From positions 116,933 through 180,932 of IMG/VR virus record IMGVR_UViG_3300031853_000001: a stretch of 64,000 bases of DNA. One strand, 5' to 3'. The stretch comes from a virus (lineage: Duplodnaviria > Caudoviricetes). The position numbers and the translations under genes are program-made. The notes beneath the pieces were generated by a model, which had not been told where the DNA came from, ran no database searches, and saw only the letters and a list, made by a program, of their open reading frames with translations. This document shows, piece by piece, positions 9,810-52,786 of the stretch. Position 1 is the first letter of the stretch. Each line of letters opens with the position of its first letter.

Positions 9810-9886
9810 GTCGGTTTAGCTTAGCTGGTTAAAGCACTCGCCTTGTAAGCGAGAGACCTTCGGTCCGAATCCGAAAACCGGCTCCA
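9810..9886 (+). tRNA. tRNA-Thr(TGT)
   Basis: GTCGGTT/AACCGGC-T-CCA; CTCGC-CTTGTAA-GCGAG. Confidence 0.9.
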
Positions 9887-27817: not shown

Positions 27818-28620
27818 TTTATATGGGTGCTAAAATAGATATGACTGGTTGGAAAATGTGGGAACATGGAGTTTCTGAAAGTAGAATAACCGTTATTAAA
27901 GAATTAACAGAAAGAAACTCTGATAATAGAATTATGTGGCAATGCCAATGTTCTTGCGGCAAAGTTTTTAATGCTTGTGGTAAATTAATTAAAAATGGTA
28001 CTACTAAATCTTGTGGCTGTTATAACCGAGATAAAATCCAAGAAAGACTCGCAAAAAAGGCATTGGAAAAAATTGGAAAACGAAATGGTTTATTAACGGT
28101 TAAAGAATTTATTGGTTTTAAAAAGAAAAAGAATAGTAATTTTAATACCGCTTATTTTTTATGCCAGTGTGATTGTGGTAATTTTATTGAATTAGAAGAA
28201 AAACGTGTTCAAGATGGAAGAGTAAAAAGTTGTGGTTGTACATCTACGTCTATTGGTGAAAAAAGAATTAAATATATATTAGAAAATAATCACATTCATT
28301 TTGATTATGATACATGTTTCCCGCAATTATTAAAAGATACAAATAGAAATCTTCGTTTTGATTTTATTATTTATAATAAAGATAATAGCATTAATAGATT
28401 TATTGAATTTGATGGGGTACAACATATCACTGGTTTAATAGGTGGTACTTGGGGAAAAATTAATAATAAAGAAATTATTCAAGAAAGAGATAAAATTAAA
28501 AATGATTGGTGTTTAAAAAATAATTATATATTAGTTAGAATTCCTCATACTAAACTTAATACTTTATGTTTAGAAGATATAATGGGTGATAAATTTATCT
28601 ATAAAGGAGATGATTTTTAA
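27808..28620 (+). CDS. free-standing homing endonuclease (CxCxCG repeats + Vsr/DUF559-like PD-(D/E)XK domain)
   Basis: CQCSCG..KSCGC repeats; LRFDF..IEFDG.QH..D..KN..C..LVRI. Confidence 0.8.
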   Translation: MEVIYMGAKIDMTGWKMWEHGVSESRITVIKELTERNSDNRIMWQCQCSCGKVFNACGKLIKNGTTKSCGCYNRDKIQERLAKKALEKIGKRNGLLTVKEFIGFKKKKNSNFNTAYFLCQCDCGNFIELEEKRVQDGRVKSCGCTSTSIGEKRIKYILENNHIHFDYDTCFPQLLKDTNRNLRFDFIIYNKDNSINRFIEFDGVQHITGLIGGTWGKINNKEIIQERDKIKNDWCLKNNYILVRIPHTKLNTLCLEDIMGDKFIYKGDDF

Positions 28621-29347
28621 TGTCCCGGTTTTTTCTTACCGGTGACACCTAACTCATGGGTCACTTGAAACTAAAAAATTAAGTTATAAAAATTTTCCGC
28701 TTGGCCGCGCACTCAATAAGGAAGACTGTATTTGTATATTAGGTGATTTTGGAAATGTTTGGCGTCTTGATAATGAAGATAACTATTGGCTAGATTTTTT
28801 AGAAGATAAAAATTTTACGACTATCTTCATTCCGGGGAACCATGAATGCTATCCTCTTCTTCGTACTTTTCCAATAGAACGATGGCATAATGGCATTGTT
28901 AGAAAAATTCGTCCTTCTGTAATTATGCTTGAACGTGGCGAAATATTTAATATAAATAATCAAACTTTCTTTTGCTTTGGCGCCGCACGAAGTGTAGATA
29001 AAATATACCGAAAAGAAGGTATTTCATGGTGGCCAGAAGAGCAAGCTTCACGAGAAGAATATGAAAATGGAATTAATAATCTTGAAAAACATAATTTTCA
29101 AATAGATTATATTTTAACCCATTGTGCGCCTAATTATTTAGTTGATAAACTTTTTCCTTATGAAAATCAACATGATGATACAACTAATTATCTCGAAAAG
29201 TGTATACGACAACAAGTAACTTTTAAAAAGTGGTTTTTAGCGCATTATCATGTTGACCGCAGCTATGACAATCAAAAATATAATATACTCTATAATGATA
29301 TAATTGAACTCTTTCCTAACGATGAAATTAAGGTGGTAAATAATTAA
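28620..29347 (+). CDS. calcineurin-like metallophosphoesterase interrupted by a 5-nt insert at 28650-28654
   Basis: ATG 28620 with RBS; TGDT|HG, LGDFG, PGNHE, LTH, AHYH motifs; the frame breaks at ACC-TAA-CT-CAT. Confidence 0.75.
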
Positions 29348-30703: not shown

Positions 30704-31537
30704 ATGAGAGAAGTAACAGATAAAATGCGTATTGCCGCGAAAAAATATTTTACTCCTCGATGGCGTGAAAAATATGGATTTTTAGAACCATATGATATTG
30801 ATGAAGATAAAATACAAGAAACAACTTGTGGAATATATTTAAAATGTAGGTGTCATTTTCCAGACTGTCCAACAATGAAAGACCCAATTCATCCTTGGGT
30901 TAGTGTAAGAGGGAGTAAATTAAATGGAAGAACTCAAATTTCTTGCGGAGCTTGTTCTAAAAAAGCTAGACAATTAGAAGAATTTAAATTTAAAGAAATG
31001 AAAGTAGGAGATATAATAGGATGTTGGCAATTAGATGAAGAATTAAAAAATAAAGAATTAAAAACAAAAATGGGATGGTCAGGACATAGTAAATATTATA
31101 AAGCTCACTGTATATATTGCGGAATTTCAGACTATAAAAGTTCTGATCATCTTAAAGTTGGTGATGATAGCTGTGTATGTCGTTCTGGAAGTTTTAATGA
31201 AAAACGATTAAATAAATTATTAGGAAGAATTTTTAAAGATAATGAAAAATTTTTTTATACCTCTGAATATGGCTTTGACAATCAACGAATAGATTTTGCT
31301 ATTTTTAATAAAAATGAAGAACCTTTATTATTTATAGAATATGATGGAGAATTTCATGATAAAGATGAAATGCACAAAGGTGAATTAGAATTAAATAAAG
31401 AAAGAGATCACCGTAAAAATTCTCGCGCAGAACAGCTTGGAATTCCAATAATTAGAATTACATATAAAGAACAAAAACTCATTAGTGAAATTTGGCTGAA
31501 AAAACATATTAAAGAATTTATTGGAGAAATTGATTGA
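30704..31537 (+). CDS. Vsr/DUF559-like endonuclease
   Basis: RIDFAI..IEYDGEFH..D..KN..IPIIRI. Confidence 0.75.
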   Translation: MREVTDKMRIAAKKYFTPRWREKYGFLEPYDIDEDKIQETTCGIYLKCRCHFPDCPTMKDPIHPWVSVRGSKLNGRTQISCGACSKKARQLEEFKFKEMKVGDIIGCWQLDEELKNKELKTKMGWSGHSKYYKAHCIYCGISDYKSSDHLKVGDDSCVCRSGSFNEKRLNKLLGRIFKDNEKFFYTSEYGFDNQRIDFAIFNKNEEPLLFIEYDGEFHDKDEMHKGELELNKERDHRKNSRAEQLGIPIIRITYKEQKLISEIWLKKHIKEFIGEID

Positions 31538-47652: not shown

Positions 47653-50600
47653 GTGTATTATAGCTTACACAACCACACCTGTGCGAGCAACCAGCGTCTC
47701 GTTGATTCTATAAACGTTATAGAAGATTTAATTCAATATGCTTTTGATTTAGGTTTATATGGTGTAGCTTTAACTGAACACGAAACAGTTAATAGTCATA
47801 TTAAAGCATTAAAGTATGTTGACAAACAAAGAAAAAAAGAAAATCACGATCCGCGATGGGATAAATTTAAACTTATTCTTGGTAATGAGATTTATCTTTG
47901 CCGAAATGGATTAAATAATGATAATTATGATAGTAAGAAGGATAGTTTTTATCATTTTATTCTTCTTGCGAAAGATGAAATTGGGCATAAGCAGATTCGT
48001 CAACTTTCAACACGAGCATATGGTCAAAGTTTTATGAAAAGTCGTATGCGTCGTGTGCCAACTTATTATTCTGATTTAGAAGATATTATTGGTGGAAATC
48101 CAGGACACGTAATCGCAAGCACAGCTTGTATTGGTGGATATTTTGGAAAAACAATTTTAAAGGCTAGTAAGTTTGAGAAAGATGAAGAACTTTTTGAAGA
48201 AGAATTAATTAAACTAAAAAGTTGGTGTGAGTATTTACAAAGTATTTTTGGTAAAGAAAATTTCTTTCTTGAACTTCAACCTTCTGATAATAATGAACAA
48301 ATTTATGTAAATAAGTGGTTATTAAAGTTTTCGGAAGAATTAGGTATTCCCGCAATTGTAACCACTGATAGCCATTATTTAACAAAAGAAGATAGACGTT
48401 TTCATAAAGCATATCTAAATTCAAAAGATGGCGACCGCGAAGTTGATGAATTTTACGCAACAACTTATATGATGAGTGCGAAAGAACTTCACGGTTATAT
48501 GGATAAATATAATGGTGCTGAGATTGTTAATCAATTAATGGAAAACACAAAGTTAATTGGTGAACGAATTGAGCAATATGATTTGAGAAAACCATTTAAG
48601 CTTCCTTATCTTCCAAGTAGGCAAGATGCTCGCATTTCAGCGTTGCCAATTATAGTAGATAGACCTCTACCTGATATTTGGTATAATTTTATTAATTCTC
48701 ACGAAGCCGCAGATAGAGTTTTCATCCGTAGAATTATTGATAAATGTAATAGTAATGAAAACTATTATTGGACTGATGAACGTATCGCACGAATGACGAT
48801 TGAGTTAGAAACTGTATGGAATGCTTCAAAGAAACAAGATATTGTTTGGTCAAAGTATTTCTTACAGGTGGCAGATTATTTAAAGATTGCGTGGGATGAA
48901 GGCGATACATTAGTTGGCCCCGGTCGTGGTTCTGGTGTTGGTTTCTATCTAAATTATCTATTAGATATTATTCAGATAGACCCAATGGTTGAGAAAGTGC
49001 CTTTGTTTCCGTGGAGATTCCTTAATCCAGAAAGAACTAGTATTTTGGATTAACAAAATTTTTACAAACAGTAGATATTGATGTATAATTGGGTAGGCAT
49101 AATCACTTGTTATATGAGGTGAGTGATATGTCAGAAAATAAAAGAAAAGGTTGTAAATTTACTTTTGAGCAAGAACAAGAAATTATTCAAGAATATAAAA
49201 ATGGTAATAGTCTTAGAACATTAGGCGAAAAGTATAATTGTTCTCCCACAACAATAAAAAATATATTAAATAGAAATGAAATTTCTACAAGAAATTTTTC
49301 CGAAGCAAGAAGAAACTTTTTAAATTATACCATAGACGAATCTTGTTTTGAAATAATTGATAACCCTGATAAAGCTTATTGGTTAGGAGTTATGTATAGT
49401 GATGGATATATTAGCAAAGCAAGAAAATATACTAACTCTTTTGGTTTATCTGTTTCAGAAAAAGATTTAGAATGGGTAGAAAAATTTAAAAGTTTTTTAA
49501 AATATAATGGAGAAATTAAACATTATATTGTTACTGAGGGGTATAACCCTGGCAGCAAATATGTCAGACTTATAATTGGTAATAATAAAATTGTAGAAGA
49601 TTTAGAAAAACTTGGTGTGGTAGAACATAAAAGTAAAATAATTTCTTGCTTACCCAATATACCTTTTTTAGATGATTTTATTCGCGGTTATATAGATGGT
49701 GACGGTTCTTTATTAAAACGATTACCTTGTTTTCAAATTAGTGGCAATAAAGATTTTTTATTAGAAATAGCAAATTATTTTAAAATTCCATATAATTTAA
49801 CTCCTGATAAAAGTATTTATTGTTTAAGATATAACGCAAAAGAGAGCCGCTATCTAGAAAAAAGATTATATAAAAACGCGAATTATTATTTAAAAAGAAA
49901 ATATGATATTGCTAGTAGAAGTTTTAACAGTCCCATTACATTGGAAGATGTAATGAAAAAGTCAGAATAACAGGGAAAGTCCTTAGAGCTTTACTTACTA
50001 AACATTAGCGAAAGCGAAGTGCGGCGTTGCTAATCACAACGGTATAGTAAAAAGAGTAAAGATTGGATAATCCTGTGGCATAGTCCTTAAAAGGAAAGGC
50101 CGCAACGACTACCAATGACTACCGAGAACCGGTAATGGTATAGTCTACTCCGCTAATAAATATCGGGAAACCGACGGTAGCAAGGATTGATAGTGATGTC
50201 CAAAGTAATCGTCGTAATAAGGTTATTGAAGCACTTCAAAGTCATTATGGAGAATTAAATGTCGTAAGAGTTGGAACTGAAAGAACAGAGGCGGCAAAAG
50301 CAGCAATTCTTACAGCCGCACGCGGCCTTGAAATTGATGTAGATACTGCTCAGGCAATTGCGGCGTTAATTGAAAGTGACCGTGGTATTCAGCGTTCTTT
50401 AAAGGTAACTTACTATGGTGATCCAGAAAATGATATTCCTCCAAATAGAACTTTCCAAGAAGAAATGGCAAAGTATCCAGAACTTTGGGCAGTAGCTCAA
50501 AAAATTGAGGGATTACAGTGCGGATGCGGTTGCCACGCTGGCGGAGTTATCATTGTAGATGAAGATATTACAGAAACTAATTCTCTTATTAAATTAAATA

Positions 50601-52786
50601 GCGGAGAATGGGTAACTGCGTGGGACCTTCACGAATCTGAGGAAGTAAGCAATGTTAAGATTGACTTACTTGCGACTTTAAACTTAACTCGTATGAGAAC
50701 CTGCTTAGACTTACTTGTCCAGTATGGATATATTGAAAAGAAGGATAGTTTAAGAGAAACATATGAGGCCGCGATTGGAGTTTATAACTTAGATAGAGAT
50801 AATCCTAAGATGTGGGAAATGCTTGCGAATAATGAAATTCTAAGTGTATTCCAGTTTGATACTCCGCAGGGTATTCAAGGCATTTCACTAGCAAAACCAA
50901 CTTCTGTTGAAGAAATGGCAGCCTTAAACTCTATTATGCGACTAATGGCAAGTGAAAAAGGTGCGGAACAGCCTCTTGAAAAGTATGCTCGTTTTAAAAG
51001 AAATCCAATGTTATGGGAACAAGAAATGAATCAGTATGGATTAACAAACGAGCAGAAGCAACTTCTTCATAAATATCTTGATTATGAGTATGGTATTTGT
51101 GCTTCGCAAGAAGATATTATGTCTATGATTCAAGACCCTCAACTTGGTGGTTGGAGCTTGAAAGATAGTGATATGCTTCGTAAATCAATTGCAAAGAAAG
51201 ACCCAAAACTTTATGAACAGTTATCTAAAAAGTATTTTGATACAGTAAAAGATAAAGATCTTGATAATAAACTTTGTAATTATTTTTGGAATGTTCTAGT
51301 TAATACTCAGCGCGGTTATTCATTTAATCTAAGCCACACATTAGCTTATAGTATTGTTGGACTTCAAAATATGAATTTAGCTTGTAATTATCCAATTATA
51401 TTCTGGAATACAGCAAATCTAATTGTTGATAGTGCAGGCGTAGATGATGGTGAAAATCCCGAAGATATAGACCAAGATGAAGTTGCGGAAAACATCGAAG
51501 AAGTAATGGAAGAAATTGAAATTGAAGATGATGACGACGATGAAGATGAAGAAGTAAAAGTCGGGCCAAAAGAAAAGGTTAAGCGAGTAAAGAAAACCGT
51601 TGATTATGGTAAAACTGCCCGAGCAATTGGTCGTTTCAAATCTTACGGTATTAATATTCTTCCCCCTGATATAAATACTTCAAGTTTTACATTCGCACCA
51701 AATGTAGAACAAAATAGTATAACATATGGACTTCGTGGTATTACACGAATTTCAAATGATGTGATTAGATTGATTATGAGTAATAGACCTTACGAATCTT
51801 TTAATGATTTTATGGTTAAAAATAGAACTAATAAATTACAAACAATTAATCTAATAAAATCTGGTGCATTTGACGCAGTTGAAGGTAAGCCGCGAGAAGA
51901 GATAATGAATAATTATCTATTAAGTATCGCAGACCAAAAGCAAAGATTAACTTTACAGAATATGCAAATGTTAATTAATAAAGATTTAATTCCCGAAGAA
52001 ATGGAATTTTATGCGAAGTTATTTTCTTTCAATAAATATCTAAAGACTTGTAAAAGTGGATTAAAGTATCATTTAGTCCCTAACGCGGTTGATTTTATTA
52101 GTGAGCATTTTGATGTAGATCTTATTGAAGATGGAGAATATATACTTCAAAAAACTTGGGATAATCTTTATAAGAAGGCTATGGAGCCAATGCGTCAGTA
52201 TTTAAAAGATAATAAAGAAGTTATGCTAGATAAGTTAAATAATTCTCTATTTAATGAAGTGGCTGAAAAATATGGTAAGGGTAATATTAGCAAGTGGGAA
52301 ATGGATAGTATTTCATTCTACTATCACGAACACGAGCTCGCGGCCGCAGCTTCAAATTATGATGACTTCTTTGAATTAAATGAAGAGCCGGAAGTGGAAT
52401 ATAGTTTCCCAGGTTCTAACGGACAAGAAGTGAAGATTTTCAAACTTCATAAACTTATTGGAACCGTAATTGATAAGAATAAGTTAAAGAATAGTATTTC
52501 ACTTCTAACTCCAACTGGCGTTGTTCAAGTTAAGATTTATAAAAATCAATATGCGATTTATGATAAGCAAATTTCGCAAAAAGGTGAAGATGGCCACAAA
52601 AAGGTTTTAGAGAAGAGTTGGTTCTCGCGAGGGACAATGCTTATGGTGCAGGGCATAAGGAGGGGAGACGCGTTCATTCCACGCAAAAAGAAGAACTCCT
52701 TATATCCAATTATCTCAAAGATTACAAACGTTTCAAAAGATGGTGAATTAACATTTCAGTATGAACGAGCGGAGGTTGATGCCTGA
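47653..52786 (+). CDS. dnaE: DNA polymerase III alpha (exons 47653-49050 and 50186-52786)
   Basis: PHP LHNHT/TEH/DSHY; GRGS; splicing gives RFLNPER..LDIDSD; HAGG, KIDLL, YSFN.SH. Confidence 0.9.
49051..50185 (+). mobile_element. group I intron in dnaE
   Basis: Exon ends GAT; core GCAACGACTA / GTATAGTCT; terminal G 50185; interrupts the catalytic DID motif. Confidence 0.88.
49089..49970 (+). CDS. intron-encoded LAGLIDADG endonuclease (likely start ATG 49128)
   Basis: AYWLGVMYSDG and FIRGYIDGDG. Confidence 0.9.
   Translation: MGRHNHLLYEVSDMSENKRKGCKFTFEQEQEIIQEYKNGNSLRTLGEKYNCSPTTIKNILNRNEISTRNFSEARRNFLNYTIDESCFEIIDNPDKAYWLGVMYSDGYISKARKYTNSFGLSVSEKDLEWVEKFKSFLKYNGEIKHYIVTEGYNPGSKYVRLIIGNNKIVEDLEKLGVVEHKSKIISCLPNIPFLDDFIRGYIDGDGSLLKRLPCFQISGNKDFLLEIANYFKIPYNLTPDKSIYCLRYNAKESRYLEKRLYKNANYYLKRKYDIASRSFNSPITLEDVMKKSE

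Follow-up and report, generated by a model that had tools for sequence, protein, structure and literature searches.

In a 64-kb stretch at the end of an IMG/VR virus record of 180,932 bp (IMGVR_UViG_3300031853_000001), referred to below as the window, we found a phosphoesterase gene that is interrupted within its first metal-binding motif by five nucleotides, TAACT, the first three of which are a stop codon. The gene starts at the very end of a homing-endonuclease-like gene. Inserts of the same kind recur at the same site in relatives of the gene, the sequence on both sides of the gap is constrained as coding sequence, and an RNA hairpin just upstream of the gap is restricted to the alleles bearing the insert. 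Taking these features together, we think it rather likely that the locus is a cassette for programmed translational bypass ("stop-hop") in miniature, linked to a homing endonuclease, in which ribosomes would skip the gap and make a single intact phosphoesterase.

Organization of the interrupted gene

The first open reading frame (ORF) of the phosphoesterase gene, ORF1, reads ATG (28620-22) TCC CGG TTT TTT CTT ACC GGT GAC ACC and is then closed by TAA; CT follows at 28653-54, and CAT GGG from 28655, where ORF2 begins (Table 1). ORF1 covers strand 1 together with the Gly-Asp of motif I, while the CAT of ORF2 is the His of the same motif. Motif I (G-D-x-H-G) is cut between Thr and His by TAACT and is complete only with the gap skipped. 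A Shine-Dalgarno (SD) sequence, AAAGGAG, sits 10 nt upstream of ATG 28620, and the endonuclease stop TAA (28618-20) overlaps this ATG in the form TAATG (28618-22). The downstream phosphoesterase frame is open from 28646 to 29347 and has no ATG, GTG or TTG before 28925 (its first 93 codons). It matches Pfam Metallophos (PF00149, E 1.3e-7) and PHROG 1649, metallo-phosphoesterase (E 9e-31), and contains all of the GDFG, GNHE, THC and HYH motifs. An original prediction, made from the bare letters of this DNA, had described GGT GAC ACC TAA CT CAT GGG at phosphoesterase motif I, intact downstream codons with phosphoesterase motifs, a good ribosome-binding site and a start overlapping the stop of a free-standing endonuclease; the letters at 28641-28660, the profile matches and the start region bear out each of these points. 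Judging from the profile match and the conserved motifs GDxHG, GDxxDRG-like, GNHE and GHxH-like, ORF1 and ORF2 would together code for a calcineurin-like metallophosphoesterase, a type of enzyme in which the Asp and His of motif I are metal ligands.

Recurrence of the insert in relatives

Searching the contigs of relatives retrieved in protein searches and scanning JGI metagenomes, we collected 11 other distinct alleles, all from independent assemblies, with an insert at exactly the same site. Together with the window this gives 12 distinct insert-bearing alleles with seven variants of the insert, 5, 6 or 7 nt long (Table 1). Since 11 further alleles have the insert at the same site, it is neither a product of chance nor an assembly artefact. 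The original prediction had named an insert unique to one assembly as the outcome that would speak against it, and this is not what the 12 alleles show. It had also allowed for an assembly error. An error of sequencing or assembly in the window contig is effectively refuted: five further assemblies, made from different samples, share the TAACT junction, and more have variants related to it.

A stop codon (TAA, TGA or TAG) lies directly 3' of an invariant GAC ACC in 12/12 alleles, and in the genome GAC makes up 22% of Asp codons and ACC 13% of Thr codons. The last triplet of the insert, just before CAT/CAC GG, is ACT in 7/12 alleles, ACC in 1/12 and ATT in 4/12. The matching codons for take-off and landing, with a stop, that had been suggested as something to look for in homologues are thus present throughout, with the stop first and ACT, ACC or the near-cognate ATT last. 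By our own estimate, a random 5-nt insert would have a chance of about 0.4-0.8% of being stop-first and of placing ACN before CAT. The stop of the 5-nt variants is followed by C, a context in which termination is weak in E. coli. All 12 insert-bearing alleles retain both the ATG and an SD-like motif preceding it.

Somewhat more distant homologs have an uninterrupted motif, reading GAC ACA CAT GGT in L140 and L141 and GAT ACC CAC GGA in L142, and the homologs L002-L007 are likewise without insert. Several very close relatives in the protein searches are annotated as fragments of 140-221 aa. In L008 (712-1440) the gene call reads through the 6-nt TAGACT as TAG=Gln, giving GDTQTHG, which looks like an annotation artefact of the gap. 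Searching more widely, blastn against the phage collection gave no match, and tblastn recovered relatives only at <42% identity. A loose pattern scan of viral contigs returned 119 matches and a tighter pattern 2, all judged to be chance, and a scan of genome contigs found no relatives.

Some homologs deviate in other ways. The insert-less L165 (313-1031; 62% identity) has an in-frame TGA at a conserved Trp (FKN-stop-PL vs FKNWP), which is either a nonsense mutation or the mark of a phage with TGA=Trp. In the homolog L016 (1480-2199) the GDIH motif is intact, and its gene calls begin at an internal Met because ATA replaces the ATG start of its relatives. The proteins P0009 and P0010 are chimeric, with a C-terminal half nearly identical to the window gene and an N-terminal half from a distant lineage; recombination inside the phosphoesterase gene is therefore frequent.

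Table 1. Features of the interrupted phosphoesterase locus, paralogs of its endonuclease, and insert variants with the alleles that carry them (positions without a contig name are those of the window).
Feature	Position or alleles	Strand	Description
Endonuclease-like gene	27823..28620	+	265 aa; two Cys-rich repeats; C-terminal Vsr/PD-(D/E)xK-like nuclease domain
Shine-Dalgarno AAAGGAG of the phosphoesterase gene	28603..28609	+	Read from sequence; inside the 3' end of the endonuclease gene
ORF1	28620..28649	+	10 codons, MSRFFLTGDT; ends at take-off codon ACC (28647-49)
5' hairpin	28621..28647	+	9-bp bulged stem, 8-nt loop; spans the start codon's UG through base 1 of the take-off codon
Coding gap TAACT	28650..28654	+	5 nt; stop TAA 28650-52; landing triplet ACT 28652-54
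ORF2	28655..29347	+	Resume codon CAT, 230 further codons and stop
Endonuclease paralog 1	30704-31537
Endonuclease paralog 2	G000:C1 36716-37660
Endonuclease paralog 3	G000:C1 73927-74832
Endonuclease paralog 4	G000:C1 95920-96696
Endonuclease paralog 5	G000:C1 112146-113105
Insert TAACT	window, L014, L017, L018, L143, L164		5 nt
Insert TGACT	L009-L012		5 nt
Insert TAACC	L146		5 nt
Insert TAGACT	L008		6 nt
Insert TAAATT	L013		6 nt
Insert TAGATT	L144		6 nt
Insert TAGAATT	L015		7 nt

Both sides of the gap evolve as coding sequence

When the insert is left out, each of the 12 alleles can be aligned gap-free across GDTHG with the insert-less L140 and L142, and the N-terminus MSRFFLTGDTHGS is identical in L140. 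ORF2 reaches its normal stop in 10/12 alleles and is open to the contig end in the other two (L144 and L146); no allele has a second stop or a frameshift in it. Pairwise ratios of non-synonymous to synonymous substitution rates (dN/dS) are 0.07-0.18, at dS values from 0.16 to >1, and they are equally low in the first 95 codons of the downstream frame, a segment without any usable internal start. In the 24 codons flanking the insert we counted at least 16 synonymous vs at least 8 non-synonymous changes, with only 15 of the 72 sites being synonymous (binomial P = 1.6e-6). The length of the insert changed at least twice, while the other ~720 nt of the gene show one in-frame codon deletion and no frame-breaking indel.

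The original prediction had also considered a recent pseudogene. The alleles do not have the appearance of one, as dN/dS is not near 1, extra lesions are absent and the start signals are intact. Recombination with live alleles weakens this pseudogene test without removing it, and the form of gene death that is left, a knock-out by a selfish element, is weighed below.

A hairpin specific to the insert-bearing alleles

The 5' hairpin has a folding energy of -12.9 kcal/mol (z -4.5), equalled by 0/200 shuffles, and among synonymous recodings of MSRFFLTGDT drawn with the codon usage of the genome a fraction of 5e-5 folds as well. The codons that build it are rare in the genome (TCC 7%, CGG 4%, ACC 13%, GAC 22%), TCG being used in some alleles. 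Every one of the 12 insert-bearing alleles has it, with energies of -9.9 to -13.1 kcal/mol, including four without the endonuclease gene, whereas the insert-less L140, with the same peptide, has no hairpin (-4.1 kcal/mol, z -0.2), and it is absent from the insert-less L142 too. The hairpin is real and specific to the insert-bearing alleles, and our case for it relies on the synonymous recodings and on how the insert-less alleles differ, not on covariation. Across alleles the loop positions vary freely. One stem pair shows a compensatory change, U-A to C-G in L013, brought about by two non-synonymous substitutions, and the stem can switch register, with TCC/GGT replaced by TCG/GGC. A separate small stem, ACCUA/UGGGU, can loop out the landing triplet.

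A candidate hop over the stop codon

Under the mechanism that we propose, the ribosome would start at ATG 28620, read ten codons and pause while the P site holds peptidyl-tRNA-Thr on ACC and the A site holds the stop codon. The tRNA would then leave ACC, the mRNA would slip forward by 5 nt (6 or 7 in other alleles), and the same tRNA would re-pair with ACU (ACC or AUU in other alleles). Decoding would resume at CAU, yielding one protein with an intact G-D-T-H-G metal-binding motif and the junction peptide FFLTGDTHGSLETK. Both the take-off and the landing codon of the window, ACC and ACT, specify Thr. At the pause, the 5' arm of the hairpin, about 18-26 nt upstream of the P-site ACC, would already be outside the ribosome, and the 3' arm would fill the exit channel and end in the first base of the take-off codon. 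Formation of the hairpin would then compete with codon-anticodon pairing and draw the mRNA forward, a putative role as bypass stimulator that resembles the one proposed for the 5'/extended stem-loops of T4 gene 60. The hop from ACC to ACT restoring GDTHG was the core of the original prediction; it fits all seven insert variants, which support it without proving it, and we infer the hop from the sequence.

A forward hop of the P-site tRNA would serve as a single mechanism for all three insert lengths, because only a hop restores GDTHG throughout. It is conceivable instead that each length has its own form of recoding, with a -1 or +2 frameshift for the 5-nt inserts, readthrough for those of 6 nt and a +1 frameshift for that of 7 nt, leading to a GDT-xx-HG product. 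The product would be equally long by all three routes, any of which could use the stop as a pause. However, there is no slippery sequence, and a tRNA-Thr slipping from ACC by -1, +1 or +2 would meet no cognate triplet; readthrough would fit the 6-nt variants only, and we found no suppressor tRNA among the tRNA genes of the genome. In addition, two added residues would part the Asp and His metal ligands of motif I, and three mechanisms are less parsimonious than one. We consider such length-specific recoding very unlikely. Even harder to credit is the removal of the insert at the RNA level, by some unknown cut-and-join activity excising 5-7 nt from the mRNA. Small structures do exist around the insert, but the conserved stop in the first triplet and the Thr-like last triplet are translation signals that would be meaningless for excision, the gap is shorter than any known splicing motif, and an Rfam search of window 27000-51000 gave no match.

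Reinitiation after the stop was also considered and rejected. The one AUG close by, within CAUGGG, does not share the frame of ORF2, and a product that lacks the Gly-Asp of motif I would be missing a metal ligand.

The record has 34% G+C and 21 tRNA genes, and the tRNAs encoded by the phage include tRNA-Thr(AGU) and tRNA-Thr(UGU). Its A34 tRNAs are Thr(AGT), Leu(AAG) and Arg(ACG), found in addition to Thr(TGT) (G000:C1 104942-106464, ahead of the window, and window 9810-9886). As a speculation, tRNA-Thr(AGU), if used here, would make a better pair with ACU at landing than with ACC at take-off.

The adjacent endonuclease gene and its link to the insert

The 265-aa ORF upstream of the phosphoesterase gene matches PHROGs 374, 559, 9084 and 7140, which are named HNH, homing or intron-encoded endonuclease. 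Its match to Pfam DUF2726 is weak and below threshold (E 0.026), and a sequence search against PDB gave chance matches only. An AlphaFold model (pLDDT 80) was matched by Foldseek to the catalytic domain of I-Bth0305I (3r3p; prob 1.0, TM 0.64, E 0.07) and also to Vsr (1cw0), with E-values of 0.07-0.09 overall, and we tentatively assign to the protein a Vsr/I-Bth0305I-like nuclease fold.

At the phosphoesterase locus the endonuclease gene is intact in the window and in L010-13, L015, L017 and L146, and partial at the contig ends of L014 and L018. It has decayed into two frames in L009, is deleted except for its last 21 nt in L143 and L164 (the SD sequence surviving in both remnants) and is absent from L008 and L144. 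The gene or a decayed copy of it is found at 9/13 insert loci vs 0/10 insert-less ones (Fisher P = 0.0016). Judging from this association, the insert probably disrupts, at the DNA level, the site that the adjacent endonuclease targets, which would spare the genome bearing the enzyme from self-cleavage while the enzyme is kept. The presumed target would lie in the most conserved part of the gene, as is typical.

The insert is flanked by a GGTGAC/GTCAC inverted repeat (window 28641-28665), which is lost in L017, and the GGC...TCG alleles have a linked T/C and A/G change in the inverted repeat around the insert. Removal of the insert would create the palindrome CCCATGGG, which may be the recognition site of the endonuclease.

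The alleles of the endonuclease are highly diverged (dS about 1, dN 0.2-0.5), and the histories of the homing endonuclease (HE) and metallophosphoesterase (MPE) genes are decoupled. Between the window and L009, dS is 0.16 for MPE and 0.88 for HE, and between the window and L014 it is 0.08 for HE and 0.46 for MPE. Active homing together with recombination would produce histories of this kind. The HE gene is present or absent at one and the same locus among relatives and occurs in several copies in the genome (Table 1), as befits a mobile cassette. Beside the five other endonuclease paralogs of the genome we found no interrupted genes or similar gaps.

Bypass or selfish knock-out

An alternative that has to be weighed seriously is a selfish knock-out, in which the insert gives immunity to its own endonuclease and kills the phosphoesterase gene, with homing and recombination outpacing the decay of dead copies by moving the cassette into fresh, functional alleles. 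The downstream frame would look healthy for that reason. Several observations are in keeping with it and count against a bypass. The HE and MPE genes have mosaic histories, and the breakpoints of the recombinant alleles L144 and L164 are no more than about 15 nt from the insert. Because of the mosaic histories and the nearby breakpoints, the low dN/dS could in part be a relic of a time before the insert. The chimeric P0009 and P0010 point in the same direction, as do other possibly defective members of the family (L016, with ATA for ATG, and L165, with its in-frame TGA). Moreover, the changes from one stop codon to another are all transitions, and it is only mildly improbable (about 0.1-0.4) for a stop to be kept over two or three such changes.

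The hop itself also meets with difficulties. The AUU landing in four alleles needs a G-U pair at the middle position, and in E. coli constructs short hops have low efficiency. At take-off the nascent chain has 10 residues, which leaves it short of the tunnel constriction and is too little for a peptide signal like that of gene 60 of phage T4, although such a signal defines the gene 60 cassette specifically and not hopping in general. As to the hairpin, formal covariation tests were not significant (there are few changes among the alleles), and it could serve another purpose.

Other features are hard to reconcile with a knock-out. A second lesion is found in 0/12 distinct alleles. The alleles L008, L143, L144 and L164, which lack the endonuclease and hence any drive, nevertheless keep the ATG, the SD-like motif, the hairpin, the insert and the frame. 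ORF1, placed between the endonuclease and the insert, must travel with the cassette and yet changes mostly synonymously, and it carries a hairpin made of rare codons, which is a cost. The stop straight after ACC and the Thr-cognate or near-cognate triplet before CAT in every variant would have no purpose in a dead gene. Overall, we regard the knock-out as a serious though less likely possibility and continue to favor the bypass.

Comparison with known bypass systems

To our knowledge, efficient natural bypassing is essentially known from the T4 gene 60 cassette and its homologs and from yeast mitochondria. The gene 60 bypass reportedly takes place within the MobA homing-endonuclease element (Huang 1988; Bonocora 2011; Manning & Atkins). 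The locus described here resembles that system in that a non-coding gap breaks a conserved metal-binding motif and a free-standing homing endonuclease lies next to it. In both, the gap outlives the decay or loss of the endonuclease, and a Vsr-type endonuclease may be the partner. This parallel had been drawn in the original prediction, and the two-sided coding constraint, the insert-specific hairpin and the link with the endonuclease lend it support.

There are, however, many differences. The gap is 50 nt in gene 60 and 5-7 nt here, too short to hold either an in-gap stem-loop or a mini Shine-Dalgarno, and a nascent-peptide signal of the KKYK type is impossible with 10 residues before take-off. 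The hopping tRNA carries Gly in gene 60 and would carry Thr here (ACC to ACU/ACC/AUU). The interrupted gene codes for a topoisomerase in T4 and for a phosphoesterase here, which is not split into two proteins. No sequence similarity exists between the two systems, the lineage of the endonuclease differs, and the bypass described here is predicted from sequence. The cassette would work like T4 gene 60/MobA but, by these comparisons, is not a member of that family. The gene 60 gap has been described as protecting against the MobA endonuclease (bioRxiv 10.1101/2022.08.31.505936, Manning & Atkins), and a 2022 survey calls the gene 60 cassette unique. Pairing within the exiting mRNA has been proposed to drive gene 60 bypassing (bioRxiv 10.1101/2024.12.09.627546).

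The +5/+6 geometry is shared with synthetic stop-hops in E. coli (Weiss, Dunn, Atkins & Gesteland 1987, reviewed in PMC5009743). Those constructs were engineered and of low efficiency, while the hop predicted here would be natural, and its site is conserved and accompanied by a hairpin. A 2016 review of recoding knew of no natural stop-hops (PMC5009743), and our literature search found no natural short stop-hop either. Bypassing by 'byp' elements has been described in the mitochondria of Magnusiomyces capitatus (Lang 2014; Nosek 2015, as cited in PMC5009743). These elements differ in being mitochondrial, in depending on an unused A-site codon and in not being tied to endonuclease genes. Their length is 27-55 nt. 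The +1 frameshift of prfB (RF2) at CUU UGA is similar in that a slow A-site stop acts as the trigger and an upstream mRNA element pushes forward, but there the tRNA re-pairs with an overlapping codon and the stimulator is a Shine-Dalgarno sequence, while here the codon would be non-overlapping and the candidate stimulator is a hairpin.

Beyond the locus itself, we lean, though only slightly, towards a broader interpretation, that of a natural short-range stop-hop in which a self-contained cassette of ~40 nt, composed of the 5' hairpin, the take-off codon, the stop and a re-pairing triplet, immunises a target within a catalytic motif on behalf of a homing endonuclease and leaves the gene alive, and which is part of a wider, unpublished class in phages. 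If true, this would be a second bypass cassette, unrelated to the first and much simpler, and hopping would be a means by which selfish endonucleases repeatedly target catalytic motifs that are invariant. A minimal system of ~40 nt, without a nascent-peptide signal, would also become available for studying how the ribosome is brought to release and re-pair by an exiting-mRNA hairpin and an A-site stop. For annotation it would serve as a warning, since such genes would be miscalled as truncated or as pseudogenes (here as 140-221-aa fragments or with TAG=Q).

A split dnaE gene in the same window

The gene of the DNA polymerase III alpha subunit (dnaE) is split (window 47653-52786). No group I intron was detected at the split dnaE by Rfam at E <= 0.1. 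The first part contains the PHP domain and the first 101 positions of the DNA_pol3_alpha profile and ends at 49053. In the second part the profile resumes at position 100, in a frame that is open from 50144 and has its first start 107 codons in. Between the two halves lies an ORF for a LAGLIDADG endonuclease (49089-49970).

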